Source: Asterionella formosa (Eukaryota). From it: a DNA stretch of 38,548 nt. The notes beneath the pieces were generated by a model. The model saw only the letters and a program-made list of their open reading frames with translations, was not told the DNA's origin and ran no database searches. Shown here in pieces: positions 3,490 through 38,548 of the stretch. The translations under genes and the position numbers were made by a program. Every line of letters starts with the position of its first letter. Within the stretch, counting starts at the first letter, position 1. The DNA lies in contig NKIB01009348.1 in assembly GCA_002256025.1 (NCBI GenBank), forward strand, positions 62,001-100,548, written 5' to 3'.

Positions 3490-3633
3490 TTGGGTAATCT
3501 GTAGGGCAAACCAAATTTTTTTGGTTCTCTTTCTTTAATAATATCAATTAGCCAGTTAAAAAGTCCATTGATATTTTCAAAATGACTCTTTTGTTTACAA
3601 TTACTGATCCAGTTGGTGACTACAGCCATATGA

Positions 3634-6490: not shown

Positions 6491-6612
6491 CCACAAAGTC
6501 GTATCTGTGAGTTAGTTTGTACTGGAACTTAGGGTACATGCGTGTGCTTGAACTATGATCCTTTTCCGCCAAATTTTCAATCTTTGTACCGGTGATGGTA
6601 GTACCAGGTACG

Positions 6613-6839
6613 TCGGTGCTATCTTTTCGTTGGTACCTGTTACCTGGTACTATACATCTGTTGACAGCCTTGCATCATGATACAAACATATTTGATGTAG
6701 TATCATCACTACAATGTACCGGTGCTGGTAGTACCTTCGGTCTGATCTTTTCGTTGGGTACCAGGTACCAGGTACTATACATCTGTTTACAGCCTTGCAT
6801 CATGATATAAACATTTTTAATGTAGTATCATCACTACAA
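6613..6839. repeat. Tandem duplication of ~100 bp (period ~125)
   Basis: ATCTTTTCGTTGG...TACTATACATCTGTT.ACAGCCTTGCATCATGATA...GTAGTATCATCACTACAA occurs twice. Confidence 0.85.
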
Positions 6840-9887: not shown

Positions 9888-10000
9888 TATGGTGCTTGAC
9901 CGAAAGAGATGTATGTGTTGAGAAACCGAAACATAGCCCGAATGAAAAGGAAGGACGTGATATAATCATTCCACAGGGAGGTTCCTGAAATGAACAAGGT

Positions 10001-10061
10001 GTCGTACTTGGTGCGGAGAGTAGGTGTAGCTCCCTCAAGAAGTCCTAACAGCCAAAGCAAG
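10001..10061. repeat. ~60-bp dispersed direct repeat, copy 1 (copy 2 at ~11561..11635)
   Basis: tcgtacttggtgcggagagtaggtgtagctccctcaagaagtcctaacagc vs tcgtactaggtgcggagaaTACCGtaggtgtagcTAGCtcccgaaagaagtccTACCTGtaacagc. Confidence 0.75.
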
Positions 10062-10071
10062 AAATATGCGA

Positions 10072-10885
10072 GCAATTCCCGCTCCAGCTATCGTGTTGCC
10101 ATTCGGGTAGACCTACTTCTAAGTAATTTTTAGGCTATAAGGAACAGTAATTTGATAGGTTATTTACATTAGGGGCAATATGGGCATGACAGCCAGAATA
10201 ACGGTAATATACATAGAAATGGTAAAACAAGCATCAAACACACGAGAATGATTGTAACATACAATATCAACGAAAATTGCCATGATCTTAGGAGCAACCA
10301 ATGTATGTTATGCACTGTAATAAGTATTGTCAAATGAGGAATAGAAAATATTGTTTTGGGTTAGAAATAAAGGAAAAAATAGGAGTTTCAGTGGAGACGT
10401 ATGCATTGTAGTACTTACACAGGCAACATAGACTTTCCGTCACACAATCGATGACCGAAATAATACAGAACAGAAAAAAAACTGAACCCAATTGAGATCT
10501 GCATCATTATGTAGCATAGATGATCTGGTTGCTACAACCATCATGCACGTAGCTGTAGTAGCCTGATACAAACCCACCAAACAACCCTGATCATTCCATT
10601 CCAATCCATTCTGATTGAGTATGATCACTACTAGGCTGCTCCAGCACTAGTATCGACTCCCTCTAGCTGAATATTGATACGTAGAACTTGTATTAGAAAG
10701 GTAGCAAAGTTAGAACAAGAAAAGCATTGCTTGGCAGCAATATTGACATCATGCTCAACAACTATACAAATCAACAAATCAGATCAACAATGGCATGATA
10801 CATCTTCAAAGAGCTCTTCAAAGAGAAGTCATTGATAAAAAAAAATTGGTTTTTATGTCAATAAATACAATCAAAACAAAACAAT
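10072..10885 (-). mobile_element. Isolated copy of 'arm A' of the hairpin-linked element; inverted copy of ~35455..36325
   Basis: Begins GCAATTCCCGCTCCAGCTATCGTG. Colinear reverse-complement similarity, e.g. ATAGAAAATATTGTTTTGGGTTAGAAAT and TATCGACTCCCTCTAGCTGAATAT. Confidence 0.85.
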
Positions 10886-12038
10886 AATTGAAATCATCAT
10901 TAGCTTTAAAACGCATCCATGCCCATCTCCCCACTTCCTGGTCTGATCCTTGTTCCAGCAATCTAGAAAATAGACGAGATGTGCACATCATGCTTATGCC
11001 TCCATGTTGCAAAATCGCCTCATACCCTTGGTTGCAAGATGCATGAGAGAACCTCATGTCTGTATTTACCTAAGTTTTGATAGCAAAACGTGTTATTCTG
11101 CGTTCAATGGGTCATGACAGTTTTTTACTGGTACCTTAATGATGGCTCCACATTGGGTACTTTTCGGCTCAGTTTACAGATAAGCCAAATACTCTCTGGT
11201 CCTCGTCAATGAAGATGGATGAGCGATTGCCAGTAAAAAATATACCGGGCAGATACCTGGTACCAAGAATGGTGTGCTGTTTCTACGTGACCGTGTTATA
11301 GAGTACCGGTTCCCCTCATCACCTATTTTTAGATACTGGTACCGATGTCACCTTGTTTGTACGACAACGTGTTTAAGGAGTATCAGGTTGCACGTAGTAC
11401 CAGGTGCCGGTAAGTCCTGGACTCCCTATACCGGCATGTAGTCCTCCCAGATGCTGCAGCTAGGTGTTTATGAGGGCAATGTTCTTGTATCATTCTGGCC
11501 ACCACATTACCGGTACCAGGTACCAGGTACCAGGTAATAGGTACTTGGTAGCTGGTAGTATCGTACTAGGTGCGGAGAATACCGTAGGTGTAGCTAGCTC
11601 CCGAAAGAAGTCCTACCTGTAACAGCAACAGCAAGTATGTAGTAGCTAATGTGTGTATGTAGAAATGTTACTATTAATGAATAAGGCACGTTCTTTGGAC
11701 TGGCCATCAATGATGCCGTTAATTTAATGTCCCGCCCAAAGCAACCATCTTCACTCGCCAAAATCAGACATTCACGAGTTCTGTGTACATTGCCTACCAG
11801 GCGTATCTTGTACCAAATAGAAGTATCCCCACTTTCAGCATTTGCTTGCATCTTGGCTGAATAATACCGAACACTTTTAACGCCATTCTCAAACAACTAC
11901 TGGTAGACTAAGTCCACCACTTCCGCATTTCAAGTCCCGAACTCAACTTTCCCCTTCTTGGGGCCTGTTCTTCTTTCGCTCTCCTTGTTTTCTGTGGTTG
12001 CGTATCGCATCGTCTTACATCATTGTATCATCGACAAG

Positions 12039-13789: not shown

Positions 13790-14869
13790 TTATCCTCCAT
13801 TCGCAGGCCGCATACACTTACACTCGTAATCATCAAAAAATTGCTGATAATAGCCACAAACATCTCGTAAATCATCCGTTGGAACAATGGCACCGGAGTA
13901 TAGGTACTGTAGTGCAAAAAAGAAGGAACCCACTGTCACAGCCATGCCAGCAACGAACCAAAGGATTCGGTAGAGCATCGTTTTGATGGAACAAGAAAAG
14001 ACGGGGAGACCAACCAAAATTCCAGCTACGAGTCCTCCAAGGTGGGCAGCCCAATCGACTAACAATTTCCATTATTAATAAGGATATAATAATGGTGAGG
14101 ATAACTTTTTGTAGGCACAAAGAACAATTATCACACTAACGGCACTCCGAAGCAACTTACCATATGGTATGAAAGAAAACGCCATGACCAAAATCACACT
14201 ACACAAAACCCCACCCAATTGCTCCTTCCTCACTTCATGACCAATCCTTCCCTGTATAGTCTTTTTACTTTCACAACAACGACAGAGGACTTCAGCGAGT
14301 TTGCCTCCAAAGAGGCCCATGACAGCACCCGAACTGCCCACAGAGACAGAATCGGGCTTGAATATACAAGACAAAATAGACGATCCAACTGCCGATGTAA
14401 TGTAAATGACAAGCCAATTTATGCTGCCCCATTCTCGTTCAAAGAAAGCTCCAGTCTCGAGCTGAACAGCAACATTGCAAAACAAATGAATAATCCCAGC
14501 ATGTAGAAAGATGGGCGTCAAGAGACGCCACCATTCATTGTCATCCAAGATAAGCACGGCATTTTTCCCTCCCCATTCAGAAAGTGCATCTGGGTAGGGT
14601 CCCACCATTGGATTGATCTTGAGAGGTGCAACCCCGCATTTGGCCATCATGGTTACTAGAATGACAAATTGTGATACTGAAAAGAGAATGGCACACCAGC
14701 CATGGCCTTGCCGAACGACGTATGGTGCGTCATCTGGGATGTCATCAACAGGTTCTGTTTCGAAAAAGCTTTTTGAGCTACTGGAAAGTTGCTTTTTCAT
14801 CGTTGGATTGCTCCTGTGAGTGTTGTCGGCATCACTCATTTGCTCATATTGGGTTGTTGGAGCGCTCAT
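13790..14869 (-). CDS. Rhomboid intramembrane serine protease (peptidase S54), 2 exons: 14869-14161 and 14058-13790 (325 aa)
   Basis: EWWRLLTPIFLHAGIIHLFCN, SVGSSGAVMG (GxSG) and DWAAHLGG (catalytic His). A GTAAGT...TTAG intron at 14160-14059 joins FIPY-VDW in frame. Confidence 0.93.
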
Positions 14870-15049
14870 TTTGGATTGGTGGACTCAACTAGGTCTACTC
14901 AACCAAATTCAGAGCTTTTCGATTCAGAAATAACTGCAATTGTGAGATATCGATTACACTGAGGCAGTTGGACGAGATAAAGCAGGAGGAACAAAGAGAC
15001 TATGGACTCAAACAATTGGTGCGATGTTTCTTTTTGATTGTGCAGATCT

Positions 15050-18987: not shown

Positions 18988-19303
18988 AGCACCGCCTGCT
19001 GCCAACGAGTCCACCATGTGCTTCCCTAGTTTTTGTAGCGTAGGTGATGAGTCCCCAAACATCTTTCGCGAAAAATGATAGTCTTAGCCACAGCGTTAGG
19101 CGAAACTCCGACCGCCTAGGAAGACAGCACACTGCTTGTAGGGGGCAACCCACTTTTCCTTGCAAACCAGGCAAGACCGCAAGAAAGGATGGTGAGGAGT
19201 GTGGGAGTCGAAACAAAAAAATTATTCTCAAAGAAATTGCGGGAATCGACCCACACAACTTCAAATTAAAGTTAAGATGCCCAACCAACTGAGCCATTCC
19301 CCG
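18988..19303 (-). mobile_element. tRNA-derived SINE-like element, copy 1
   Basis: Minus-strand head GGGGAATGGCTCAGTTGG (A box) ... GGGTCGATTCCC (B box), then a ~240-bp body shared with 31053..31412. Confidence 0.7.
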
Positions 19304-19901: not shown

Positions 19902-21504
19902 TGATAAAAAATTTGCCCCTTTTCCGGGTTTGTTTATCTAAAAATGGTCTGATACTTTTTGACCTCATATCCCCGGGTTAGTTCAGAACGTGTTTTTATC
20001 AGAAATATTTCATTTTATCAGCCCTAAGGTACTGAACCTCAATCACTTTTTTAACACGGTTGCATGGACGTCCAAGTACTATAAATTTTAAGACCGATTC
20101 AAGACCATGATATGCAACATACCTATTACCGGGACACGTGGTAGTTGAAACGTTTACACTGTTCTTGCTATGGTGGTAGGCAGAGGGGGTTCTTTGTCCA
20201 ATTTCATGATGTTCAGTGGTCAAGAGTTAGTGAAATACCTCAACATAACCTGGAGCTGCTTTTTTGTCTATATGGCTATCATGCCCTCATTCTGATTAAT
20301 GATGCTACAGTTGCAACCTTCATTCATTCTTTATCCCTGGATCTCAATTTTCTTTGCCATTGAAAATGCTCATGGAAATCTGGGTAGAGATTTCATTTTA
20401 CATTTCTAATACAAATTCAGATAGTGCTTGCTAGCAGGATTTGACATCATTTATTTTATTAAAAAATGTTCATAAATGAATGAAATAAAGAATGCCAGCA
20501 GCATTTGATATTATGAACTAAAATTAATAGAAGATTTTAAGTCCTACAAAGGGATGTCCTGCAAGGTCAGATCCGAAATTGGTCAGCAGGATACTGGACT
20601 TGAAAGATCATGGTTTGCTAGAATCACTTATGGGTGCTATTGGTACCATCACCCGCTCTCAACTAAGCCAATGCTAACTGCTGATGGTAGGATGGAAAGG
20701 GACACATTTGAGAAATTCATGACAAGTACCTGGATTTGGATGATATATAGCTAAATATATCTCATTCATTGAGGAAGTCACAGTCAAGAAAATAGTGGGT
20801 TCATACAAGGAAGCCTTACAGTATCAGCTTTCGAAAAACAAAGTGTAGAGCCCCATCTTTGTGCATGCTGACTGACATTGTGCAAGTGATGGTGCCAAAA
20901 TAGTCAACCCAATCATACCAGATGACCATGATCCACATCACCTCGTCTCTGAGATATAAGACTACTAACAGTATGTACTGCTGTTGATTACAGGAGTTTA
21001 CCACATGATAGTTAATCATGTGCTGGAGGAAGTAATTTAGATGTGTATAGTTGAATATTTTATAGGTCTGTCCAACACGTGATCCACCTTCAGGGTACAA
21101 TGAGTGAAAAGGTTAGAAATCTGTTACTAGAGACATCATAATTCACAATAAAAATGATTGATTTACATACTTTATTCGAGAAACTCTGCCAGCTGATGCG
21201 AGAGTAACCCTCACTCTAAAATCATTGAACCCTATTTCTTTATCCCAAGGAATCCATCCTATAGGTGCACCACCTATGCTACAAAAACCTCTGGAACCTG
21301 ATGGGACCAAATGCTCCTCCCATAAGGCTCAAATCATTATGGTTCCCCTTGAATGCAAAATTTTTACTAAATAAAGTCATTACACCGTTTTCTCCACTGC
21401 TACAGAATAGAAATTTCAATACATCTGGGCAGCTTGTTCTCCCTCAAAATATTTTTTCACATCAAAGAAGCTTGCTTGATCTACATAGCTTCTCTTTTGA
21501 AAGA

Positions 21505-22707
21505 CTACTGAAACACCTGGCAGGAGTTGCACTGATAACCATTGCCTCGGTAAATTTCTTCATAATAGCCACACACATCATCTAACTTTGCTGATGGAAC
21601 AACAATTCCAGAATACAGGTACAAAAATCCGAATATAAAGCAGGAAATAATAAATAACCAGCCAGTCAGAAGCAGAAGTATGCGGTAAAAGATTTTGTCA
21701 ATGTGCCAAGAAGCAATAGGAATTCCAGTCAAGAATCCAGCACCAAGTCCGGCAAGATGGACAGCCCAATTGACTTGTATCAATACCAGAAATGGGGGAA
21801 GACAGTTGTGAGAATCCATCACCACAAGGTACAATTACCAAACAAGAGTGAAAGATCAAATACTTTCATTCGTTCCCAGTAACATACCATAAGGGGCAAA
21901 AGAAAAGGCACAGACCAAAATACTAGAGAAAATCACCCAACGTAATTGCTTTGCTCTGGCAATGTGTCCCATCGCCCCCCTTAACGTTTCTTCGCTTTCA
22001 CGGCAACGAAACAAGATTTCAGCAAGCTTGGCACCAAAGATTCCCATGATTGCACCAGAACTGTCCACAGAAACAGAATCGGGATTGAATATACATGACA
22101 TAATGGATGATCCAACCGCTGAGGAAAGGTAAATAATGAGCCAGTTCATGCTCCCCCATTCTCGCTCAAACAATATTCCCATCTTGAGAAGTAAAGTGAC
22201 ATTGCAAAACAAATGAAGGATTCCTACGTTGAGTAAAACAGGAGTCAAATGACGCCACCATTCATTGTACTTTATGATAAGACGAGGATTCGTTCCTCCC
22301 CATGTAGAGAGAGTATCTGGGTCAGGTCCAAGCATGGGATTGACGTCGATTGGTGCAAAACCGCATGTTGCCAACATTGATACCAACATGATAGTCTGTG
22401 CCAGAGAAAAGAGAATGGCGACGTAGCCACGTCTCTGCCTCAAAACAATTGGGGAGTTTGGGTTGACCGGCTGGGTTTCGAAGAAGGACAATATGAAATT
22501 GCTCGATTTTCGTTTCGTTGATTCCGAGGTATTCCTTGCCAATTGTGAATCATATGGATGATAATCTTCCCGTTCATAGTCCTCCTCCTCGTCATCGTCA
22601 TCGTCAATAAAATGTTCGTAGTTCGTCGTTGGAGAACAATTTTGTTCAGTGATGGTCGCTGGATCACAACTCTGTTCATAGTTCTTGACTGTTGGGGCGG
22701 TGGTCAT
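21505..22707 (-). CDS. Rhomboid paralog, 2 exons: 22707-21888 and 21773-21505 (362 aa); active-site motif altered
   Basis: Same intron position (FAPY-VNW; GTATGT...AAG, 21887-21774) and same 269-nt exon 2 as the first copy. SVDSSGAIMG, NWAVHLAG; N-terminus MTTAPTVKNYEQ vs MSAPTTQYEQ. Confidence 0.88.
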
Positions 22708-23887
22708 TGTATTGACTCGTTTTTGATTGGCTGGGTAAATGGCAGGAAAGAAAAGCAAAGGAAAGAGCTCAAGTTTGGTTGAGCGTCAAGTGTTCGTTTC
22801 AGGAATCAAGAATTGTCCCAATGTTGACAAGAATGTTTTGATACAACTGATGAGCAACTGAGGATGTAGTGGACAGAATATTCCAGCAAATTATAGTACC
22901 AGGTTCTGTACATGTAACAATAGATGCTGGCATATCATTTCCAAAAATGAACGCGTGCACATTTCTAATTGTTAACATCATACAGTAGAGTCTGTATGGA
23001 TGATCATTCCCCGACTAGCGATAATGTCTACCAGGTCGTACCAGTACCCGTAGGCAGCCCAAGGAGCATTGGGACAACTATACACAGGTGGAGGGTATTT
23101 TAGTAAACCTCCTACACAAACACTACTGTAAAAGCCTCAAAACTAATGTGTGTGTGTTATGATTGTAATTAATTAATGATGTTTATGCCGTTATACGGAA
23201 ACACCATGTTAAGCAAGCAAAGCCTCCTAGCGATTCGTGTCGCTCAGGTGGTTGTTGCTCGCGCACATTTCCTTTCACCACGCTGATTTTCGTATTGCTT
23301 GCGATGCATACGTAACGGTCTTCTGAGTGTCTCAACGTCGTGATATTCCTGTATGTGCAGCTGTCAGCATTGCTGTTCCGACGGAACTGTACCAGATTGT
23401 TGGTACTCGAGCACCTTGTACCTGATACCACCAGGTACTCCAACCTGCTATTAGGAAGTACGGTACTGGTACCAGGTACCAGGGTACTATATTATCGGTT
23501 CTGCACATTTCTTTATGTGCACAGATATACGCACGGATACCAGGTACCACCAGTCTATATCGAAGAACAGGTCGTTCTTACTTCCCAGCAGGGTTGTCGG
23601 GCTCCTCATTCTTGTGCGTGAGTTTCTGAGAACTGGTACCTGGTAGTACCAGGTGAGCGATCCTGCACATCGATACAGATGTATATAGGGTTAGGGTTGT
23701 ATCAAATTTATCAGAACTCAATGATGAGAGAACTTGACTAACACCTATTGTATACTTTGGTGTCAACTTAGGAAATGAGTTTAATACAAGGATTAATTAT
23801 AAAGCTCATATATTCAACAAATACTACTACTTCTAGTTAGATACTTCACTTTGAATTCAAAAAGAGCCCAATTAGAACAAAACAAAC

Positions 23888-25240
23888 ATGGCAATGTATT
23901 CAAGGGTTCCTGTGGTCATTCCTTTGATCAAAGATTACAATGTATTGCCTATCAAGACTAAGACATTCAGAGTTTCTTTAACCGGTAGAAGGTTTGAATT
24001 ATTTGATCAAGATATGATTGATGGAAGCTCTGTGGAAGCATTATTGATTGGAGTGAGTCAATTTCATGTCAGGAGGGCTAACACATCATGTGCCTTTAGC
24101 CCTGCAGATAGCTTTTCCTACTTCAAAAGGTGTTTGACTGACATTGCCTTATTGGATTGGTTGAATGTGGAAGTATATCCAGAAGATCAATCCTATGATA
24201 GTTTTGATGAAGCAATGGTTTTATGGTTAGATGATCATTTACCAAATGAGCGTTTTCAACATCAATGACAATGGATGCTGTGCTACTTATCTATACCCTT
24301 TTCTATGTTGGTAATGGATTTCGGAGCTTGCTTTAACTTTGAACAGGCTACTTCAACTAAATGCCTCATCCAGAAGATCAAAACGGATTGTCGAAAGAAG
24401 ATATGCGGATCATTATCATTCATTCTATGCCCGATGAGTGGCAACAAGAGTTTGAATTGAATGATGCTAAAACTTCAGACCAATCAATTCGCTCGGCTGT
24501 CGCTTACTTCGAGAGTCAACAGTCGTTTAAGGACCAAAACAAGCACTTTCCCCAAAACAGTTTTCAAACAATCACACAAAATTGTCTTTGTATTGCTGAA
24601 GGCAATTGTATGATGCGTCAAGAAAACGAGCGTGTCAGTCGTCTATTGTACAACGATAATTTTACTCCAAGTGGTCATGGAAGAGCATGTGCTATTGTCA
24701 ACACAGCCGGTCGCGCATGGGATTGTCAGGCGACTGTTAGTCATCAAGCTCTACAAGCCAGTCGTACGTACCATGATTCTTGTGGCCCTTGCCCGGTACA
24801 TCTACTTGAGGCAATCATTTTCAAAATCCTTTTACTCAAGGTGATTGAGCAGGTCGCATGGCTGGTCGTCATAATGGACATGGCCATTCCAATTTTGGTG
24901 GACAAGGACATTTTGGTGGTTGTGGAGGTGGCTCACACAGCAATCCTACGGAAAGCTACCATACTGACACTACTGACACTGCTAAGCCTGTGCCTGTTAC
25001 TACACTTAGTACTCATATGTTAAATGCATGGGTTCATAATACTCATCCATCCAGCTGGGGTACTGTGCCATGTGCCGATCCTACCGAGAATACATCTGCC
25101 CAGGAAATTTCAGTGGTCACGAACCCTCCTGCTGGTCAGCTAGTGACTTTTGTCCCTACTACACAACAGCAGATTGCTGATCACCATCACAGAGGTATGT
25201 GCGATAATAGCGATAGGATGCTATTCATCATGACTCATTG
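23888..25240 (+). pseudogene. gag: gag remnant
   Basis: Fragmented ORFs with IIIHSMPDEWQQEF, a PCPVH knuckle-like remnant and a Gly/His-rich tail, immediately upstream of the protease. Confidence 0.65.
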
Positions 25241-25494
25241 AGTAAATCTCACATTAGTCATCACCTGAATAATATTGTTTATTTACAAGTTGAATACACT
25301 ATGAATACCGCTGTTCCTGTAACGCAGGACATATATAAATGCATCGATGGACATGATGTCCCAAATACACATCAGGGCCCAATTCCGGTTTCCTGTTTTA
25401 CTTCTAAGGATGCATTAACGTCAATTGATTTGATTCCAATATCTCTTTTAGCACCACGATTGGTGGATGCTATACCTATGCATTAAATACTATG

Positions 25495-28400
25495 AGTATT
25501 ATTTGATAGTGGAGGATCTTAATCCTTAATACATGAACGGCTTATGCCTCAAGGTATTTCTTTGTCTAACAAGACTTCCCAATCAATACATACCATAGCC
25601 GGTACTTATTCATTTCATGCCAGTGTTATTTTACATGACCTGATTCTACCTGAATTTAATCGATCTACTCTTATTTTACAACGAAAATGTCAAGTTTTCA
25701 ATGATCTAGGCACATTTGATGCTATTTTAGGACGTGATTTCCTTTGTCAAGTTGGTTTAACCATTGATTTCGTAAATAACACCATGTCCTGTATGGATAT
25801 GATTCTTCCTATGCATTTTATCACATTTTTTGATGATGGAGAACGTTTACGTGATGTATTATTGTATTTTGATGTACCTATTGTTATGGAATCTTCATAT
25901 ACGCTGGAAATTAAATCTGCTGAATATAATTACGTGAATATTGATACAGTAGTGGATAAACAGATACATTTGACAACGATGCAACGGTCATGTTTACGAA
26001 CTATATTGGTTAAATATCAAACATTATTTTACGGAAAATTAAGTTTGTCCTCATAAACAGGTACATTTGGAATTATAATTATCAAATGCCATCCCTCGTC
26101 ATCAACGAGCATATCCGGTCGCTCACATTCATTGAGAAGTTTTCAAAACCGAATTACAACGGTTGTGTGATATTGGAGTCCTACAAAAATGTGGTGCTTC
26201 TAAATGGGCATCTCCCTTTTTTATTATTCCTAAAAAGGATGGAAGTGTCCAATGAGTGTCAGATTTTGTGAATTCAATAAAGTCATCAATCGCAATATAT
26301 ACCCTTTACCTCGAATACAAACTATTCTCACTAAACGTGCTGCATATGTATTCTTTACCAAATTGGATGTTTCTATGCAATAATATACCTTCGCATTAGT
26401 TGTAGAGAGTCAAAATTTGTGCGTTATTTCCACTCCATTTGATTTATATAAACATTTATGTCTCCTTATGGGGGTGAAATAATCATCCGACATTGCACAA
26501 GAAACTATGGAACATTTTCTTAGTGATTTAGATGATGTGGAAATTTATATTGATGATGTAGGTTGTTTGTCAATGAATTTTCCGGATCACCTTCATTTAT
26601 GGACACTATTTACATCGTTTACAGGCAAATGATTTTACAATTAATCAATCTAAGTGTGAATGGGCAGTCCAAAAGGCAGATTGGTTAGTCAATTGGTTAA
26701 CTCCTAATGGACTGAAACCTTGGTCTAAAAAGGTCCGAGCATTGATTAATATGTCTTCACCTACCAATCTTAAACAAGTCAGATCGTTTCTCGCTCGGTG
26801 CAATTACTTCCTGTCGAGACATGTTTCCTAGACGATCTCATGTTCTTGGACCACTCACGGCCGGAATTTATTGGAAGTGGTCCATTTGACTGGTTACCTA
26901 GTATACATAAACAAGTTTTTAAAGAAATAAATGCATTGTTAGTTGCAGATACACTCAGGCGTTATCCTGATCACAATAGGATCGGTCATTATGCAAAACG
27001 ATCTCCCAGATGTTTATTATTCTCGAAAATTATCTGCTGCTCAAAACAATTATACTACTATTGAAAAAGAATTATTTTCTTTGGTAGAAACTTTCAAAGA
27101 ATTTCGCTCTATGTTATTGGGTGCAGTTCTATATATTCACACTGATCATCGAAATCTTATTTAATATATTTTAAACACTCAATGTGTTCTACGGTGGAGA
27201 CTTTATAATGAAAGAATTTCATCCTACTTTTCACTACGTGAAAGGGACTGACAATGCTATTGCAGATTCCATCTCTAGCCTCCCGAGGCTTGCGTCTTTG
27301 GTGGGGGATGATATTGGACCGGAATCTCCAGCGTCAATATTTACTTCTACTTTTTAAAATTGAATTAGATGATGACCCTTTGCTTACCTGTTTCCTCAAT
27401 CATCCAATCTTGGCAGACAATATTCAATATCCTCTGGATTATAATTTAATACATGATAGACAATTGCTGGATATACAATTGATTCTCAATCAACAAACAC
27501 ATCCGTTAAATTTTCCCAATATCAATTTTCATGATACATATTTAATATGTTTTGAGAAGAAACCAGGAGATACTTGGCGTATTGCTATTCCTACATCACT
27601 ATTGGATCCTATTATTAATTGGTATCATCAGATGTTAGCTCATGTGGGTATGACAAGATTAAATGCTACAATTACTACACATTTTTATCCCCCTACATTA
27701 AAAGCAAGAGTGGAACATATTTTAAGAGTAATATGTGAAGTATGTCAACGTACAAAATTACCTGGTACTGGTTTTGGTGAACTTCCACCCAGGAATCCAT
27801 TGTTGTTACCATGGTCAGAAGTCGCAGTGGATCTAATTAGTCCATGGAAGATAACAGTGGCTGCTCAAGCGATTGAATTTCGTGCTCTAACTTGTACTGA
27901 CACAGTCACCAATTTAGCAGAAATTTCACGTATCAATAATAAAACATCAGAATATATTGCGATGAAATTTGAAAATGATTGGGTAGCCAGATATCTCCAT
28001 CCAGAACTTGTATACATGACAATGGAGGTGAATTCACTGGTGTTTCTTTCATACACAGCATGTTAGTGTTGAATGGAATTAAAGATGTAACTACTACAGT
28101 CAAGAATCCACAAGCAAATGGTATCTGCGAACGTTAAAATCAATCTATCAGTAACAGTCTACGAGTTATGTTAAAGGCTCATCCTCCAATCAAGAAATTT
28201 CAAGCTCAGAATATTGTGGATACATGTTTTGCAGTGGATCATATGCAGCTCGAGAAGCTATTCATAGTATATTACGTATTTCACCAGGAGCATGGGTTTT
28301 TCAACGTGATATGATATTAAATTTTCCTTTTATTACAGATTTACAATTAATACATCAATGTCGACGACAAGTCATAATTGATGAACGTTTACGTCGTGTT

Positions 28401-28600
28401 AATTTCCGTCTTCGATCTTATGATTACAAAGTGGGTGACGAGATGTTAATACTATTGTTGGATAATCCTACTACCTTGCTTAGATGATCGTGGACGAGGT
28501 CCTTATACTATTATTCAAGTACATGCCAATGGTACAGTTACTTTTCAACGCACTATGCATATTACAGAACGAATTAATATTCGTCATATCAAACCTTTGA
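25495..28600 (+). pseudogene. pol: pol remnant: aspartic protease, reverse transcriptase, RNase H, integrase
   Basis: VLFDSGGS (~25496) and DAILGRDFL; YPLPRI (~26300), IYIDDV (~26543); YYSRKLSAAQNNYTTIEKEL..HTDHRNL; WYHQMLAH..CEVCQ, VAVDLI, PQANGICER (~28108), GPYTIIQVHANGTV (~28498). Confidence 0.93.
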
Positions 28601-30419
28601 TGGGTAAAAGTTTTTCCCTTTATGATTTTGTTTTCCTTGTTGTTGTTGCGCTCAGCCCCTTCAAGGCGCGATTGTAGCATTTTCTTTGTCTGGATGAGTA
28701 GGAACTTCTCCTTGAAGGGGCTGCCGCACATTATGGCATTATTTTTGACATGATGCTTCACATTGTTGTTGGCACTGATACCTGCATCTACAACTACACA
28801 AATTGCCGATACTGAGGATACAATCAATCAATTATCAGTTAATGAATCACTTGCTTATCTCATATATGGAGTTTTACACTGTTAATTTACTATGGGTAGC
28901 CCAGTGATGATTTCTTTATTCTATATGGCAGGTGCATGCATGACGCCTCCCATTCATGCGTGTACTCATGTAACTAGAATCCTACGGGAATTTTGGTGGA
29001 TTGATGATCATTTCCATAATCTATAATCAAGTGTCACTCCAATTGAAATTCAGCCTTACCAGTAGTAGCTATTATGACGTTTTCCACTGTTTATGTATGG
29101 GCTTCTGTTTGTATAGAAAAACTACCAGAGTAGTATGCATTCATGCTCTATAGAACTGTAATCGTACATCGGTTATCTCATTTTACGGGCGATCATTTCT
29201 GTCCAGAAAGTATAATCTGAAATCAAAAACATTTGATTCTTATCATATCCTATATGTTTGATCAAAGCATCATACTAATCATATTGAAACGGTGTCATAA
29301 GATATAAGAAAATGAAAGATCAAAATATATTTAAGTGATAAGATAAATTGATATGAAAAGTAAGATAAAATCATCCTAAACGAATTATATTAAGTTTTCC
29401 GCTGTATTATGGTACTCCACCATGATGTGAATAAAAACCAAGTATATCATAGGCCATGGCTTTTTTGAAGTCTGTCTATAAATGATCAAACTAATACATG
29501 ATTTTTTTTGAACAACGCGTTATGACTTGTTCCGCTAATTTAGGAGCTGAATTAAATCACTGACTTGTAGGTAGGACAAGAATTGACACGAAAAAAATTA
29601 AAAACAATACATCTTAAATTGATAATAGTATACCGGTACACATGATATGCCATATAAAGAGTGTTCTTGAACTACGCAAATGTTCAACTGTATGAATATT
29701 TATACATTTAAATTTTTATAAATGCATACTTAGCTATTACATGTCAAATAATTTTTACATTTTCTTTTCATGTATACATTTCCTGAATTGAAAGTTCACA
29801 TCAGCCACTTGACAATGAACAATGAAGTGGCGCTACAACGCAATGAAACACCTTGCGGCTTCGAAGAATTGAAAATACTAGAAAGTGAAGGGAATCAAGC
29901 TATGGTATCTCATGATCGCCAAGGAAATATGCCTAGTCAGGATCATTGTTTGTTGGATTGCCAAAAATTGATTTTTTGCTTCTCAAGCAATTCAATTGCT
30001 CATTTTCTATTATCGCTCATTTTGTATTCAGTGTGAAACCACCAATGTGGAAAAGCGAAAATCTGTGAGTGCTTCTTTTGTTGTATCAAATCAAACAGGT
30101 TACACCTGTTTGAACATAACTGAAAGATGTGCGCTGCTGTCAGAATAATGCTGGGACACAAACGGTATTAGTATTTTATAACCAATAGCGCTAGAAAGAT
30201 TTATTGATGCATAATTTACGAGATATTCTACTATCACATTATTTTACCATAATATGAGAAGAGAACTTTGCCTTGTTGTGGTAAGTAAAGATAGAATGTC
30301 TGGAACTTCATGTTGTGATGTAAGGAAAGCAAGACTAACAAGCAAGTAATTGCTTCTCATAATTAATATAGTCACGACAAACAAAATAGATCTACAACTG
30401 GAAATAACGTAGGATGATT

Positions 30420-30620
30420 CAAAATCGGAGTACAAGGGAATGGAGAGAGGCAGCTAACTGTAAGATTGTAAGATTTCAGAATCGGAGTACATGGGGAGGG
30501 GGAGAGGCCGCAGAGCAGTAAGAGTGTCAGAATTAAGAATCTGTTTACAAGGGTAGTAGTAGGGGGAGAGGCAGTAAACATTAAAAGTGTCAGAATCGGG
30601 TTTGCAGGGAAGTGGACAAG
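30420..30620. repeat. Degenerate ~55-60-bp purine-rich minisatellite x4
   Basis: CAGAATCGGAGTACA.GGG...GGAGAGGC...TAAGAGTGT units. Confidence 0.65.
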
Positions 30621-31052
30621 AAAGCAAGTGAGCAGTTGGACGAGAGAAAAGGGAAACATTGCGTAGCAACTCAAGATTTAAAAGCAAAATAGAATCATTT
30701 CTAAATATAGTACTGAAATGATTGTGTTTTAGAAATAATTTTTATTCAATGAAAATGAGAGCTGCGATTGAAACTATATGCATTGCTTCATCATATCATA
30801 TTTAGCAATACAAGCATCACGTGGCAAAACATTCTTTGCCACTTACCATATGATATCCATGATCTTAAAGATATGATACTTTTTATTTGAAGACAATCTT
30901 TCAAGAACTCATAAGGTAAGAAAAATTCAAACAACTGGAAGACAGTCGACTTCAAGTGAATTGGAAAAGATGAAAGTCTTGAAGAAAAGCTATTCATCTG
31001 CCTCCTGTCCAGCAAATTCCTGAATGTCCCCTCTCAGTATCAACACCTTGTG

Positions 31053-31412
31053 TAAGAAATGGCTTAGTGGTTTTGCACGTTGCATTTGATCTAAGTTTTT
31101 GAGGTTCAATTCATGCCATTTTTTAGAGAAGCAATCGTTGGCTTCGACACCCACACTCCTTACCGTCCGACATGGTCTTGTCGTCTGGTGCGCAAGAAGT
31201 AGTGGGTTGGGGGGGGGGGGGGGGGGGGGGGGGGAGGGCGGCCCCCCCCCCCCCCCCCTACAAGCAGCTTGTGCCACCTTCTTAGGCGGTCGGAGTTTCC
31301 CCTAACGCTGCGGCTAAGACGATCAACCAAGAAGTTTGGGGACTCACCTACGCTAACAAAAATAGAGAACAAGCACAGGTGCATCTTGTCGGCAAGTACC
31401 TGGCTGGTAGCA
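31053..31412 (+). mobile_element. tRNA-derived SINE-like element, copy 2, with internal G26/C17 runs
   Basis: TGGCTTAGTGG (A box, 31060) and GGTTCAATTC (B box, 31103). Body TAGGCGGTCGGAGTTTC.CCTAACGCTG.GGCTAAGAC...GTTTGGGGACTCA matches the reverse complement of ~19050-19130. Confidence 0.7.
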
Positions 31413-32038
31413 CAATGAAATACTAGTAGAAATGGGGAGTACGAATGGGCTATAAAATGTACTATCTCTTATCAGCACCTTGTTTATGAATTAATTTCGA
31501 CAAACTACATTTTCAGGTGCTGGGGCATTGTCATCATCAATATCGAAAAATCCAGATGCAACGGTAACATCATCATCATCATCGAAAATTGTGCCTGTAC
31601 GCTTGACAAGCAAGTTCGACAAGCCCTGAAGGCATGATACCTTGATTTCCTAATGCCTCCTTAAATATATAATTGCATTCACCATAGCAAAACAAATTCT
31701 AGATAATCCTGTTTTGCTTCTCAAGTAAGAGCATACAGCTCAGTTGTATATGCATCATCCACAGCCCCTGGAGCTGTGACCATAAAGGCCAGCCATCACC
31801 TCTTTACCTCCTATTTCATTGACCTCACTTCCTTGCTTTTCAGAACTGTCTTTCTTTCAAATCGATGAACCTTTGCGATATTCACATGGAAATTCATGAA
31901 AGACCAAGGAGGAGAATGGTACCTTTGCCCACAATTCTCAATCGTGGCGTCGAGGTCATGTTCTCCTAATTCTAGACTATTTAGAACATTTACCGGTATT
32001 ATATACACAATTTCGTTCGGAATAATGTTTAAAAAGAA

Positions 32039-32807
32039 GGGCGCCACTCGTTCGGTCACCCTACTTGCGCCGCCCGAGTCAAGTAGACAGACTCCTCCTT
32101 AGTAGGGTCTTAACTAGGCAATTCACAAACTAGCTATCGGCGCGCTTTTCGCCACTACAATGCCGTTTCAGTTAACATTGAAAACGTATTTTAGATAGTT
32201 TGTATGTTGGATGCGAACAAGCTAATTGCCGATCATATAAAACATATATTGTATACTTCATATGTAGAGATTTTTGATTAATCAATCCTGCAATTGCTCT
32301 TCATAAAAAACCTATTTTGTATATTTCATATGCTCCGTTTTTGAACTGCCAAACTACCTTCAATATGTTCTACAGCCCCTAGATTTTTTTGCCAAAATTG
32401 ACTGCCGTTTATCGAAGGGAATTGATTACTGATATCTATGACCCCTCAATGGACTGCCATTTGCTTAAGGAAAATCGACTGCCAAAATTGCAAGGGAGTA
32501 GGATGAACCACGTGAAGGCACAAAATGATGGTTTTCTGTAAAGTGTCGATGGCAATTCCACTACATCCATGCTATCCTCCAGCATGGTCCGATGTATGAA
32601 AACTCTGTTCATTGATGTCTCAAATAATGACTCTTCATCAAATGAATCTGGCTGGTTATTGCATGATTCGACTTCATGTGACGTATGCTTCATCACGGTG
32701 GCGCCATATTTTCGGCATTTTCGCTCAGCCGTTAAATTTTTACTATAAAGCATTTGTTATATTTTCCATGTGTCCTACAGTATCTCAAATCAGATCTCGG
32801 CAGCAAG
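32039..32807 (+). mobile_element. Half hairpin plus 'arm C', copy 1; direct repeat of ~36572..37502
   Basis: AGGCAATT.ACAAACTAGCTATCGGCGCGCTTTTCGCCACTACA... through TATCTCAAATCAGATCTCGGCAGCAAG is shared; this copy lacks ~200 bp present at ~37225-37420. Confidence 0.88.
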
Positions 32808-34083
32808 GTTTAGTGCTCAATTGTTGGCTTTTCCGCTGTTCCTGTAGGTTATCTAATCGCAATTATTTTTATTACTTCGGCAATGACAACGCAAACCAGA
32901 AGCCACTTCTGATACCCTAAAAGAGCTATCAGCTTGAGGTGAGAAACAACACTTAAGGTGACAAAAGGAATCATCAAACTGCGCCTATTGTCTTGGTTGG
33001 TTCATCATGATATGTTCTGTTGATTGTTGTTTGGTCGCTTCGATGTGAATCACGGTAATACCAATAATCAACCTATATTGATTTCCAAATAGAACATCTC
33101 GACGATGTATATCATACTCACAATCTAAATATCCAAGGAGCCAGCATCACATTTGTTCCTTCCAGCTATAGATGCAATTTTCCTAATGTCTCAAAACGAT
33201 TCCCAAGCAGTGGCACATTCTGTTGATTGCTGCATATGCTTGCTTTTATTCATCTTTTCTGAACTCAATAACCTTTTGAAATTTACTCCCGTTCACATTG
33301 TTGTACAAGAATCGTCAGTCGGAACATACCACGAGCCAAAGCAGCAAATGAATGATTTCCAAAACAATATTGGAATCATTATGTTCTACATCATTGCGCC
33401 AATGACACAACTTGTAATGTACCATATTCCAACACCACACAACACCCAATGCAATTGAAAAGTCAGGTTGATTGTCATCTCAATTTAATTTCTTTTTGAG
33501 TGAATCCTATAGTGAATGTATAAAGTGACTCCATCACTGCACACAATCACATTTTCCTCCATGATGATGATCTTGATCCCATTGCTTAAAACTTCAGTCA
33601 TCCGGGCGGGTCATCTTTGTCCTTCTCCTACAATACACTAACTTTCACACCACACCGACGCACGCCACCAAAGTTTACAATCCCCTTGCTTCCTCCACAA
33701 ACACCACAAGTCACAGTTCTTCTAGCTCCATTGCCTCCCAAGCTGGTTGAATTATTGGTTGCTGCTTTTCCAGGCCTGATTGAACGTTTCATTTATTTTT
33801 CTTCGACGACGTGAAAGAAGTGTAAGTTGGCAATTGTTAATGAACATGCATATACATTCTTTCAAAAAATTTCCACTTTTTATTCAACTCCCTGATCGTC
33901 ATTCTTGTTTCATACTTTGGTTGCTTAAAACCATCATGCTTGCTGCAATCATTCTTGTGTGATCATTTTTCATGCATATTTGGGACTCCATCCATTTTTG
34001 ATGTGGCTGCTTTCGAATGATGACTCTACTCCTGACCTTGCTCGATGGTCCCTGCTCAAACCTTAAATTGACTGCTGATGGCA

Positions 34084-34205
34084 ATACACGCCCGAAGTGG
34101 TCTCTTGCCTGTGAGTATACATGTGTTTGAGGCTGGGTGACACAAGTAGGTTGACCGTATGAGCGGCGACCCAGCGCGGCGAGAAGGTCACTCTACTATG
34201 AGTGC
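34084..34205 (+). repeat. Partial, more decayed tandem copy of the CGAG hairpin module
   Basis: AATACACGCCCGAAGTGGTCTCTTGCCTGTGAGTATACATGTGTTTGAGGCTGGGTG... parallels the sequence from 34216 onward. Confidence 0.85.
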
Positions 34206-34214
34206 TGAAGGCAC

Positions 34215-35260
34215 CAATACATGCCCGAGGTGGTCTCTCGCCTGCGAGAATACATGTGTTCGAGGCTGGGTGGCGCAAGTAGCTAGGTTGACCGTACAAG
34301 TGGCGCTGCAAGAAGGTCACCCTACGAGCACCATCCCAGCCGAGTACACATGTATACGAGAAGGCAAGTAGCCACCGAGAGGGGTATTGTTGAGGCGATT
34401 CCCGCTCTAGCTTTTGTCGTGTCATTTTCTTACCTACTGCCCACAAATAAATCATGAATGTCAATTTTAGCTTACTATTGCCCATCATACAAAGTATATT
34501 TTGGATATTTCCTATCTTCACCTCGAAAATTCCCAAAGGTCCGATATTGCCCATCATTAAAATATATTTTGTATATTTCCTATGTTAGCATTTTGGCAAG
34601 ACAACAGATGCCAATCGCCCCTCGGGTTTCCAGCCCTGGGATTGCCTAAATCGGCAAGGGGTATATTTAAGGAAACCATTTTATATATTAAACATTTTTT
34701 CTAATTTATATCTATAATTCACCTCGTTTTTGTTCGTCTCCTGAAAAGTGGACTCCGGCCATTCACCTTTCACCATGCCGATCATCATCCATCAGGACCG
34801 GTATGAAGCGAAATCAGTTCAGCGATGACGCCAGTAGGCAGCGATTCTTTGTCTAACGGATGCGGTGGCTGGTTGTTGGATTGCTTGTCTTCTCGAGGTA
34901 TTCATGTAGTCGAATTGTCCATATTTTGTTATACAAATGATGATATTGATACATCTGATGTAGGTAGCAAGTTTTTGCTCCCCCGGTCATGTATGTGATG
35001 ATGCTTAACGGATATTCTACTGGTAGTCATCTAGCCTACATATGTACGTGGTACTCGAAGCAACCATGCATGGTTTAAAGCTAAACCTTAATGCTTAATT
35101 TGAAAACATTATAATATTATCGCTTTAGACTCAGTTTTATTTTTACAAAACCAGAATGTCAAATTATATCGTTCACATATTGATTGATTTTACGTCTGCC
35201 CAATTTCTCCCTCACAATTATCCTTCTCACTCTATCCTGCCTGCCATTGCTCTCAGTTCA
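34215..35260 (+). mobile_element. CGAG hairpin (34215-34410) plus 'arm B', copy 1; inverted repeat of ~37540..38548
   Basis: ~1 kb of colinear reverse-complement similarity, also visible as the near-identical spurious ORFs 34458..34649(+) and 38135..38347(-). Confidence 0.9.
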
Positions 35261-35454
35261 GCCTCAAAACCGGTACCTTTCGACTCTCGTTTGAGAGCAT
35301 CGTCTGCTGCTTGCTTGTTATGCTAGTTGAAGTGGATCGGTGAGTACAACAGTGAAACACTGAATGTGGATTGTAGATCCTATTTATTGAATTTCCGATT
35401 TGATTGCTTCCATGGTCTGTTTTGATCGCTTCCGTCGTTGTTTGTCATTCCACA

Positions 35455-36444
35455 CTGTCGTTTTGATATGATTGTATCTATCTACATAAGAACCAATGTA
35501 TTTATCAATGACTACTCTGTGAAGATGTTTTATTGTGCCGTTGTTGATCATATTTGTTGATGTGTATAGTCGTTGACAATGATGTCAATTTATTGCCGCC
35601 AAGCAATGCTTTTCTTGTACTAACGCGCTTTGCTACATTTCTACTACGAGTTTGTATCACAAGCTACGTATATTCAGCTAGAGGGAGTCGATAAAACTGG
35701 AGCAGCCTGGCGATCATACTCAATCAGAATGGATTGGAACGGAATGATGATCAGGTTGTTTGGAGGGAGGAACGACTGAGAGCGGAAGGACTGCAACTTT
35801 TGTCAGGCTACTACAGTGATGTTCATGGTTGCAGCAACCAGATCATCTACGCTAAATCACGATGCAGATCTCAATTGGGTTCAGCTTTTTTTCTTATCTG
35901 TTTTATTTTGCTCTTCAATGGTGTGATGGAAAGTCATTGTGGTTGCCTGTGTAAGTACTACAATGCATACATCTCCACTGAAACTCATATTTTTCACTTT
36001 ATTTCTAACCCAAAACAATATTTTCTATTTCTCATTTGACGCTACTTATTACATTGCATAACATACTTCAGTTGCTCCAAACATCATATTCAATTTTCAT
36101 TGATGTTGCATGTTACAGTCTGTCTCGTTTGTTTTATGCTTGTTGTACCATTTCTAAATATCTTACCGTTATTCTGGCTGTCATGCTAAAATCGGCAATT
36201 TCTATGCCGAAAAATCCGATGTGCCCCATATTGCCCCTAAATAAAAATTACTTAACAAATCACTTAGGGCCTAAAATTACTGAGAAGTCCCCAAATCGCA
36301 ACACGATAGCTTGAGCGGGAATTGCCGAAAAATCCACAGTGTCCCATATTGTCCCATAATATAAATTACTTAAAGATACCAAAAATTACTTAGCCAACCA
36401 CAGTTCTCATCGAAAAGCAAGACGATAGCTAGGGTGGGGATTGC
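35455..36444 (+). mobile_element. 'Arm A' with a tandemly duplicated ~120-bp terminus
   Basis: Matches 10072..10885. 36207-36325 and 36325-36444 both run CCGAAAAATCC...CCCATATTG.CCC.TAA...CGATAGCT.G.G.GGGA.TTGC. Confidence 0.82.
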
Positions 36445-37502
36445 TGCGAGTATTCTTGTGTTCGAGGCTTGGGAGGCGCGAGTAGGTTGACCGAACGAGT
36501 GGCGCCCCTGGCGCTGCGAGAAGGTCGACCTGCGAGGGCCTCCCGAGCCGAGTACACAAGATTACGAGTAGGTAGACTCCTCCCGAGTAGGGTATTACCT
36601 AGGCAATTAACAAACTAGCTATCGGCGCGCTTTTCGCCACTACATTGCCCTTTCTGTTAACATTGAAAACCTATTTTAGATAGTTTGTATGTTGCATGCG
36701 AACCAGCCAATTGCCCATCATATAAAACATATATTGTAGATTTCATATGTACAGTTTTTTGATTACTCAATCCTGCGATTGCCCATCATATAAAACATAT
36801 TTTGTATATTTCATATGCTCCGTTTTTCGACTGCCAAACTACCTTCAATATTTTCAATAGCCCCTAGATTTTATTGCCGAAATCGACTGCCGTTTATTTA
36901 GGGGAATTTGATTACTGATATCTATAGCCCCTCAATTGACTGCCGTTTACTTAAGGAAAATCGACTGCCGAAATTGGACGAGAGTAGGAGGAGCTACATG
37001 AAGGCACAAAATGATGGTTTTCTTTAAGTGTCGACGGCAATTCCACTGTTTACATCCCTGCTATCTTCCAGCATGCTCCGATGTATACAAAATCTGGTAA
37101 TTGATGTCTCAAGTACTGACTCTTCATCAAATGGATCTGGCTGGTTGTTGGATAATTCGATTTCTTATGGGATTCATATCATTGCATCGTGCTTGCTTCG
37201 TCACGGTGGTGCCAAAATTTCGGTTCCCCTTTCTGTTGATTTCCGATAGCCTTTCCGGTCAACTCCTTCGCTAGATTTGATATATAGTGATAAATAAATT
37301 AATGATTGTTCAAAAGCGACATCAATCAGTTGTTGAGTATCAAAATTCAAAACGTTATGGTAGGTCAAAGTTAGGCTTCCATATCGCCATTGAACCGGTT
37401 CTTTCGTCAGATATGATCAGGCAGCCGTTAAATTTTAACTATATTTTTGTAGTTTGTTTTCTACGTTTTCTACACTATCTCAAATCAGATCTCGGCAGCA
37501 AG
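36445..37502 (+). mobile_element. CGAG hairpin (36445-36624) plus 'arm C', copy 2
   Basis: Periodic CGAG at 36447, 36463, 36479, 36496 | 36517, 36533, 36549, 36565, 36584, with self-complementary spacers; the arm matches ~32085..32807. Confidence 0.9.
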
Positions 37503-37539
37503 ATGGGATAAAAGAAAGACGAACGTTGCCTATTGCAAG

Positions 37540-38548
37540 CCCGAATAGAGCAAAGGCAGGCAAGATAGAGTGAGAACTTTATTTGTGAGGACGAAATCGG
37601 GCATACGGTACGTAAAATCAATGAATATGTGAACGATATAATTCAACATTTCAGGTCTCGTAAAAATAATACTGAGTCTACAGAGATAATATTATAACAT
37701 GTTCAAAGTAAGCGTTAAAGCATAGCTTAAACCATGCATGGTCGTTTTTAGTACCACGTACGTATGTAGACTAGATGACTGCCGGTACCGGTAGAATATC
37801 CGTTAAGCATCATTACATACATGACCGGAGCAAAAACTTGCCACCAACATCAGATGTATCGATATCATTGTTCGTCCGACAAAATATGGACGATGCGACT
37901 ACATGAATACCTCGAGAAGACAAGCAATCCAACAATCAACCGCATCGTTAGGCAAAGAATTGCTACTGGTGTCATCGCGGAACTGATTTCGCTTCAAACC
38001 GGTCATGATGGACGACGATTGGCATGGTGAAAGGTGAATTGCCGGAGTCCACTTTTCAGGAGACGAACAAAAACGAGGTGAATTCTAGATATAAATTATT
38101 AAAATCTCTATGTAGAGTTTATAAAATGGTTTCCTTAAGTAGACCCCTTGCCGATTTCGGCAATCCCAGGGCTGGAAAACCGAGGGGCAATTGGCGTCTG
38201 TTGTCTTGCCAAAATGCGAACATATGAAATATATAAAATATATTTTAATGATGGGCAATTTCGGATCTTTGGCAATTTTCGAGGTGAAGATAGGAAATAT
38301 ACAAAATATATTTTATATGATGGGCAATAGTAGGCTAAAATTGACATTTATGCTAAATTTGTGGGCAGTAGGTAAGAGAATGACGCGACGATAGCTAGAG
38401 CGGGAATTGCCTCAACAATACCCTTCTCGGTGGCTACTTGCCTTCTCGTATACATGTGTTCGAGGCTGGGATGGCACTCGTAGGGTGACCTTCTCGCAGC
38501 GCCGGGGGCGCCACTCGTACGGTCAACCTACTCGCGCCACCCAGCCTC
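37540..38548 (-). mobile_element. 'Arm B' copy 2 plus CGAG hairpin on the minus strand (runs off the window)
   Basis: CTCG at 38426, 38445, 38477, 38493, 38514 and 38531; terminal motif CGATAGCTAGAGCGGGAATTGCCTCAACAATACCC at 38389-38423. Confidence 0.9.

Follow-up and report, generated by a model that had tools for sequence, protein, structure and literature searches.

A head-to-tail array of abundant, non-coding repeat elements with strand-asymmetric palindromic junctions in Asterionella formosa

Results

The array is built of elements with distinct heads and tails

We analyzed a stretch of 38,548 nucleotides from the freshwater alga Asterionella formosa (GenBank assembly GCA_002256025.1, contig NKIB01009348.1, positions 62,001 to 100,548 of the forward strand), referred to here as the window. 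From position 32039 to its last nucleotide, the window is occupied by an array of repeats joined through imperfect palindromes. The original prediction, made from the letters of the sequence, had described this array as three interchangeable arms (A, B and C) that share a 23-mer and are joined through the same hairpin. Self-BLAST found the three arms where they had been placed: C at 32082-32675 and 36567-37164 (88% identity) and again at 32726-32807 and 37422-37502 (82%); B at 34262-35253 and, as its reverse complement, at 37547-38548 (86% over 1018 columns); and A at 35460-36325 on the - strand, matching 10072-10882 on the + strand (75% over 902 columns). The ~200-nt palindromes also sit at the proposed places, the order of the array was given correctly, and inverted decamers close the junction at 36423-36624 as claimed. 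A search for the 23-mer returned four matches at three or fewer mismatches (10071 and 34394, and 36304 and 38389 on the - strand), where 0.00 were expected from 100 shuffles. The remaining proposed sites, at 32117, 36423-36445 and 36602, are more diverged variants that can be seen in the sequence and in the alignment.

The arms are not freely interchangeable, however: the palindrome halves to which they are attached are of two distinct types. Aligned outward from the apex, the halves separate into types that we call T1 and T2, and profile searches with nhmmer separate them too. With the hybrid half at 32039 left out, T1-type halves are 81-100% alike; the three T2 halves linked to B are 92-94% alike, and the T2 linked to C, in the palindrome hp36, is 73-75% identical to them. 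Aligned with each other as inverted repeats, T1 and T2 show 55-77% identity. One T1 is paired with one T2 in all five complete junctions (hp34a, hp34b, hp36, hp38 and the junction in L001, an independent metagenome contig), of which hp38 and L001 (94% alike) may represent a single lineage. B stands on T2 in all three of its copies and C in one of two (hp36), the other C copy being attached to the hybrid end at 32039. A stands on T1 in two of two copies, as does D, a fourth arm that lacks the 23-mer and that, in sequence comparison, has no similarity to A beyond T1.

B and C are collinear and distantly homologous (64% identity over 312 columns and 62% over 175), and each carries two copies of a 44-nt repeat set 68 nt apart; a 41-nt repeat is also present twice per C arm. 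Given this homology, the common 44-nt repeat and the attachment of B and C to T2 and of A and D to T1, the arms are of two classes, which we designate heads (B and C) and tails (A and D). The motif GGCAAT/ATTGCC occurs at 2.0-2.15 per kb in the array, compared to 0.28-0.50 per kb outside it. Arm A opens with a 118-bp tandem duplication (36205-36322 and 36323-36440) and so has the 23-mer twice. The elements, their parts and the palindromes at their junctions are listed in Table 1.

Table 1. Elements and junction palindromes of the array, and a separate tail arm. T1 and T2 are the two types of palindrome half; positions are those of the window.
Feature	Positions	Strand	Parts	Basis
E1, C...D element	32039-34171	+	hybrid terminal module 32039-32116 (first ~39 nt T1-like, remainder T2-like with a ~17-nt deletion); 23-mer variant 32117-32139; arm C to 32807; D 32808-34070; T1 (reverse complement) 34071-34171	self-BLAST, alignment, nhmmer
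E2, ~135-bp deletion derivative	34174-34306	+	~30 nt from the start of T2, fused to a complete T1 module (reverse complement, 34201-34306)	nhmmer, alignment, sequence
E3, B...A element	34302-36507	+	T2 34302-34400; 23-mer 34394-34416; arm B to 35253; middle 35254-35459; arm A 35460-36325 and 118-bp duplicate to 36440; 23-mers 36304-36326 and 36423-36445; first 63 nt only of T1, 36444-36507 (reverse complement)	self-BLAST, 23-mer search, nhmmer
E4a, truncated head of C-type element	36510-37502	+	T2 (C variant) 36510-36608; 23-mer variant 36602-36624; arm C to 37502	self-BLAST, nhmmer; breakpoint from contigs
E4b, truncated head of B...A element	37503-38503	-	arm B; 23-mer 38389-38411; T2 38405-38503; truncated at 37503	self-BLAST, 23-mer search, nhmmer
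E5, first 43 nt of T1 module, cut by window end	38506-38548	+		nhmmer, L001
hp34a, junction palindrome, right half truncated	34071-34206			
hp34b, junction palindrome	34201-34400			
hp36, example junction palindrome	36444-36608	+	T1 reverse complement; 2-nt spacer 36508-36509; T2	
hp38, junction palindrome, cut by window end	38405-38548			
Solo tail arm A	10071-10882	+	begins at the 23-mer; between two ordinary genes	23-mer search, self-BLAST

E3 has terminal inverted repeats (TIRs) at both of its ends, T2 at the head and T1 at the tail. E1 to E3 and E4a follow one another head to tail on the + strand; E4b and E5 do so on the - strand, and the two sets meet at 37502/37503. Contigs of four sequencing runs (X1, X2, X8 and X17, the last an RNA library) were mapped on 29000-38548 at 80% likeness or more; figures for contig continuations and bridging are taken from the best-supported entries of the mapping tables. 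The original prediction had B abutting C. Such a contact does exist at 37502/37503, but 102 X1 contigs (agreement 0.99) and six X2 contigs run leftward from this point into the sequence that follows B in E3, and not into C, indicating that the contact is a breakpoint between two truncated elements. B...A is the commonest arrangement, and the link from B into the middle section of E3 is the common one in X1. At the other end of the array, the left end of E1 meets unrelated DNA exactly at the palindrome apex (32039), where a half palindrome begins, and an X8 contig spanning 31854-32130 with two differences bridges this boundary.

Where the tail of one element meets the head of the next, with 0-2 nt between them, the two ends form an imperfect palindrome of ~200-250 bp, which continues beyond the 23-mer into arms A, B and C. 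The spacers at these junctions are unlike each other (CT; GG; 1-2 nt; none) and unlike the left flank at 32039. L001 (1185 nt) contains arm B, a whole palindrome and arm A; it is 94% identical to 37851-38548 and then continues into A, and its positions 1-699 are 94% identical to E4b. The T1 that matches E5 runs on into an A arm in L001, and as this independent contig spans the B-palindrome-A junction, the junction is real and not an artefact of assembly. Folded as DNA, the full palindrome of L001 (215 nt) reaches -60.1 kcal/mol (z = -8.5), and folded as RNA it reaches -126.7 kcal/mol (z = -11.1); in neither case did any of 200 shuffles fold as well.

Several rearrangements are found at the palindromic junctions: the 118-bp duplication, the truncated T1 of hp36, and the pair hp34a and hp34b. 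We considered whether hp34b is nested inside hp34a and rejected this, as the remainder of the interrupted T2 does not reappear beyond 34400. At the internal join of E2, there is 3-nt microhomology, with TGC fitting either side. The two halves of hp36, which belong to different elements, have in common derived and mutually compensating changes that other copies lack, and this junction may have been inherited or corrected as a unit.

The junction palindromes carry a strand signature

T1 and T2 differ mainly at five phased sites, 15-19 nt apart, that read CTCG in T1 and CGAG in T2. CTCG is found at five of five T1 sites in L001, four of five in the metagenome contig L004, all four in the retained part of hp36, both of those in the in-window part of hp38, three of five in hp34b and none of five in hp34a. 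CGAG is found at all five T2 sites in L001 and in hp36, at four of five in hp34b, and at four of five in hp38, whose site 3 is T1-like. In the old T1 copy of hp34a (34071-34171), all five CTCG sites have changed, four of them by CG to CA or TG, as would be expected if the elements are cytosine-methylated.

Because T1 and T2 differ in this manner, all ten sites of a junction, or of the two ends of a single element, read CGAG on the same strand. In a true palindrome, a word and its complement are equally frequent on one strand. The ratio of CGAG to CTCG on one strand is 10:0 in L001, 10:0 on the + strand of hp36 and 7:1 in hp34b. The CGAG count was reached by none of 2000 dinucleotide-preserving shuffles of each of these three palindromes, and the excess of CGAG over CTCG by 0, 0 and 1 of 2000 in L001, hp36 and hp34b, respectively. 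When the CGAG strand is folded, each site opens into a 2x2 internal loop, flanked by C-G pairs, with GA opposite GA. There are thus five tandem G·A mismatches, an arrangement expected to be stable. On the opposite strand, pyrimidine mismatches are predicted, and that strand folds 7.6 kcal/mol less well. The head and tail of any one element can pair in the same way, as a panhandle.

From this asymmetry, we infer that the machinery acting on these ends recognizes one particular strand, as single-stranded DNA or as RNA, or that recognition is by a protein array of fixed polarity. The asymmetry also hints at a single-stranded step in the spread of the elements. The strand signature is described here for this array for the first time. 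Narrow word searches of literature listings and abstracts returned no G·A-mismatched transposon ends and no account of this repeat family.

The family is abundant, and fragments of it are dispersed

Sequence of the window is present in part in 20 of the 24 runs listed, from 13 studies, with labels that include ‘algae metagenome’ and many freshwater metagenomes. The contigs matching 29000-38548 at 80% or more number 121,588 in X1, 8843 in X2, 757 in X8 and 2190 in X17. That the cluster might be a one-off local duplication, a condition named with the original prediction, is ruled out by the X1 matches together with L001. In X1, depth summed over contigs, which should not be taken for a copy number, reaches 0.3-2.35 million across arms A and B and the palindromes, and 20,000-94,000 across E1. 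In bins of 29000-30594 without a repeat peak it is about 2100-4900, and an exact, unique contig there has a depth of 1167. The arms therefore have 100-1000 times the summed depth of flanking unique DNA in X1, and the family is of very high copy number. The depth profile of the RNA run X17 tracks those of the DNA runs, and so X17 informs on neither transcription nor silence.

A metagenome scan gave six loci, of which L001, L002 and L004 are informative; L003, L005 and L006 proved to be chance matches. Dispersal of copies is seen here for fragments, at 10071, L002 and L004. The T1 end stops exactly at the apex against unrelated DNA at two loci, 32039 and L004. In L002, T1 lies ~215 bp upstream of an open reading frame (ORF) for tocopherol cyclase, a plastid-type host gene. 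The solo A arm at 10071 has no palindrome half or T1 beside it.

Two observations concern the surroundings of these fragments. A ~1.5-kb stretch that starts with the solo A arm is bracketed by a direct repeat (9999-10070 and 11558-11640; ~70-90 bp, 80% identical), which is far longer than any usual target duplication. In L004, positions 241-344, just inside the solo T1, are 82% identical to 20191-20291 of the window, which has no T1 beside it; sequence of this type is yet another repeat able to neighbor T1.

The array is non-coding

None of the 61 ORFs of at least 45 aa reached the Pfam cut-off. No mobilizing enzyme was found, as the original prediction had also reported. Rfam returned no matches at E values up to 1, and neither RNA families nor tRNAs were found. 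Likewise, we found no coding relics. A possible viral origin was explored with five pattern scans of viral contigs, of which one returned two loci, L007 and L008, and the other four returned none; as these loci have nothing in common with the window beyond the 18-mer, both are chance matches. A search of prokaryote genome contigs gave no matches.

Other features of the window

The first 15 kb of the window holds ordinary genes, mostly without introns, including a 2OG-Fe(II) oxygenase, a redoxin and rhomboid paralogues, and the window is eukaryotic. The two rhomboid-domain paralogues lie on the - strand at 13790-14884 and 21505-22785 (72% DNA identity over 548 columns), each followed by a short second ORF resembling a downstream exon. 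A degenerate retroelement with broken ORFs occupies 23876-28487 and includes an integrase zinc-binding domain (27242-28066); no long terminal repeats were detected around it. Another repeat family, very abundant in the runs, is present as an inverted pair (31058-31394 and 19000-19298, 69-77% identical); the copy at 31058-31394 lies directly upstream of the array, contains a run of 30 G (31209-31238) and has a summed depth of 50,000-168,000 in X1. Short tandem duplications occur at 3288-3489 (two copies of ~100 bp, 92% identity) and 6585-6839 (two of ~130 bp, 85%), and GGTACC-rich tracts recur in intergenic DNA at 11110-11560 and 2479-2587 of the window and at 100-290 of the related contig L002.

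Discussion

A proposed reading: elements integrated at one another’s ends

We read the array as a set of non-autonomous, TIR-type (class II-like) elements that have integrated at one another’s ends, an interpretation to which we give about an even chance of being right. The original prediction had offered ~2-kb non-autonomous elements, with the hairpin in their ends and inserted at one another’s ends, as one of two possibilities; this half of it fits best, its other possibility, a cassette system joined through the hairpin, being the less likely, and its interpretation as a whole is partly supported. The region would then be a head-to-tail stack belonging to one very abundant family of ~2-kb non-coding mobile repeats. 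Each element is polar. Its head consists of the ~100-bp module T2, followed by a 23-bp box and then by a subterminal arm, B or C, with many phased direct repeats and GGCAAT/ATTGCC motifs; its tail, arm A or D, ends in the ~100-bp module T1, and T1 and T2 are mutual inverted repeats. Mobilization would be in trans, by an enzyme encoded elsewhere, and newly made copies would be inserted at the ends of resident ones or recombine with them. A possible route would be an intermediate in which the element’s own two ends abut. IS30-type elements target their own inverted repeats.

The TIR-type interpretation is suggested by the non-coding, motif-rich subterminal regions, the E2 derivative, the sharp ends at 32039 and in L004, and the fragments among genes at 10071 and in L002. 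The anatomy, the head-to-tail polarity, the high copy number, the absence of coding capacity and the strand asymmetry are all seen in the data; that the elements move by transposition, are targeted to ends and pass through any single-stranded step is inferred. The precise abutment of unlike neighbors, across unlike spacers, is in keeping with integration aimed at resident ends or junctions, and it disfavors both repeated insertion into one duplicated target and the rolling out of one circle.

Long TIRs and arrays of subterminal repeats are features of non-autonomous class II transposons such as deletion derivatives of the MULE, hAT and CACTA types. The elements described here resemble these in their inverted termini of ~100-128 bp, motif-packed subterminal arms, lack of coding sequence and high copy number, and in having a derivative joined at microhomology. 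They differ in that no target-site duplication (TSD) is seen and no transposase is found, in that their termini differ at five sites facing one strand, and in their precise head-to-tail abutment. Miniature inverted-repeat transposable elements (MITEs) are shorter than about 800 bp and have TIRs and a TSD, whereas the units here measure 2.0-2.2 kb, with E2 (~135 bp) as the one small exception, and no TSD is seen among them. Foldback elements and palindromic MITEs are likewise abundant and contain a long palindrome that folds on itself, but the palindrome here makes up about 10% of a 2-kb unit and straddles two units. Helitrons and Helentrons have a 5' TC, a 3' CTRR and a short 3' subterminal hairpin, and insert between A and T or T and T; both termini here begin, from the apex, with G/C-rich sequence of the GGCGC type, and the inverted ends are ~100 bp.

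Two systems with abutting elements are also relevant. Tandem dimers of transposable elements, head to tail, can arise by double insertion at one target, in which case the same duplicated target is predicted in every junction and in the flanks (McGurk and Barbash, 2018; PMC5932611). The array is like these dimers in consisting of complete elements, head to tail, with few bases between the TIRs, and unlike them in that the spacers differ, the flank at 32039 is different again, and neighbors are different members of the family. Bacterial copy-out-paste-in insertion sequences, IS3 and IS256, form junctions of abutted ends (as summarized by Kojima and Bao, 2022; PMC9587614). As in those junctions, left and right inverted ends abut here, separated by only a few bases, and each junction has one end of either type; here, however, the host is eukaryotic, the ends are ~100 bp, and no enzyme was found.

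Several observations weigh against the interpretation as end-targeted, TIR-type elements. As the original prediction had also reported, no TSD is visible, and no element in the window has both of its ends in unique DNA. Neither the window nor the loci yielded an ORF for a transposase, a recombinase or a Rep-like protein (the search for a transposase domain covered the window, L002 and L004), and because no transposase was found, the elements are assigned to no superfamily. T1 has an inner boundary that is sharp to 2 nt or so in each of five contexts (A, D, E2, L004 and L002). In L002, host-like intergenic DNA and a host gene follow on the inner side of T1, which fits a self-contained palindromic unit better than the end of an element. 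The compensating variants that the two halves of hp36 have in common fit the inheritance of that junction as a whole. Since both apices of E1 are T1-like and both ends of E4 are T2, the head-to-tail rule needs a hybrid end in the one case and a breakpoint in the other. The abundance of the family, finally, is measured here by summed contig depth and not by copy number.

Alternative explanations

It is these observations, on the TSD and the enzyme, the T1 inner boundary, L002 and the hp36 variants, that keep two alternatives alive. In one, which we consider unlikely, the ~210-bp palindrome of T1 and T2 is itself mobile, as a small unit of the foldback or MITE-like kind, or is copied as a whole, and the arms are separate repeats that flank it or are its targets. 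The sharp T1 boundary and the meeting of T1 with host intergenic DNA in L002 are as such a unit would predict, as are the solo A arm without T1, the pairing of T1 with T2 in five of five full junctions, and the hp36 variants. A self-contained unit is harder to reconcile with the T2 variant following the arm (the T2 of hp36 is set apart from those linked to B), with a palindrome that continues through the 23-mer into A, B and C, and with solo T1 ends that stop exactly at the apex at two loci; moreover, no complete palindrome stands alone among the three informative outside loci. In the other, quite unlikely in our view, circular or single-stranded units, each with one imperfect palindrome, are joined at the apex by site-specific recombination of a single-strand hairpin, as in integron attC or HUH/Y1-like systems, and build same-orientation arrays without TSDs. 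Ten CGAG and no CTCG on one strand, with five tandem G·A mismatches on folding, are consistent with this, as are the head-to-tail order, the lack of a visible TSD, and a neighbor linkage that switches at the apex (A|C in hp36, A|B in L001). Yet no ORF for such an enzyme was found in the window or the loci, the units are non-coding, solo ends beside unrelated DNA fit ordinary insertion equally well, and the asymmetry could be inherited from one founder copy. In integron cassette arrays, attI accompanies an integrase gene, and each attC site has inverted core sites at its outer ends. Like attC, the palindromes here are imperfect, carry unpaired positions that mark one strand, and lie between units of the same orientation; unlike attC arrays, the locus has no integrase or recombinase domain and no R or L core boxes, the exchange point is apparently at the apex, and the units are non-coding and ~2 kb long. 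At its boldest, this alternative would posit a eukaryotic mobile family that uses a strand-specific single-stranded hairpin, in which a ~100-bp stem bearing five tandem G·A mismatches, formed by the pairing of tail and head termini, is read by an HUH-type or recombinase-type enzyme that joins units at the apex into head-to-tail arrays without target duplications. Such attC-like or IS200/IS605-like logic in an algal nuclear genome seems to us quite improbable.

Two further alternatives relate to the array as a block. It could be satellite-like or segmentally duplicated, for example a higher-order repeat of the subtelomeric or pericentromeric kind that contains a palindrome and has been amplified through unequal exchange and inversion rather than through transposition. 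The position of the array at the window end, where the sequence stops inside a palindrome, the very high abundance, the recurrence of the same B-palindrome-A junction in L001 and the rearrangement-prone palindromic junctions would all suit a satellite. We judge this distinctly improbable: neighboring units are different family members (C...D, the 135-bp derivative, B...A and C|B), fragments are interspersed with ordinary genes (10071, L002), and ends are sharp against unrelated DNA at two loci. An origin of the junctions in integrated concatemers of a linear replicon or virus with hairpin ends is very improbable indeed and was already disfavored. The imperfect palindrome of the junctions, with conserved unpaired positions and halves of about 100 nt, may resemble the telomere junctions of poxviruses. 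In a hairpin-ended concatemer, the same sequence lies inverted on both sides of the junction, whereas the arms here differ on the two sides (D|B, A|C and B|A); in addition, there is no coding capacity, and both of the loci from the viral contigs are chance matches.

Implications

By summed depth, the family may form a sizeable part of the genome of this freshwater alga. Its ends depart from the usual symmetric picture of TIRs, with ten phased CGAG sites on one strand and units that lie 0-2 bases apart. If this asymmetry is functional, it would point to a single-strand or polar recognition step of a kind for which our narrow literature search returned no description in eukaryotic TIR elements. 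The assembly itself stops within a junction palindrome, and such palindromes are likely to fragment assemblies of this organism.

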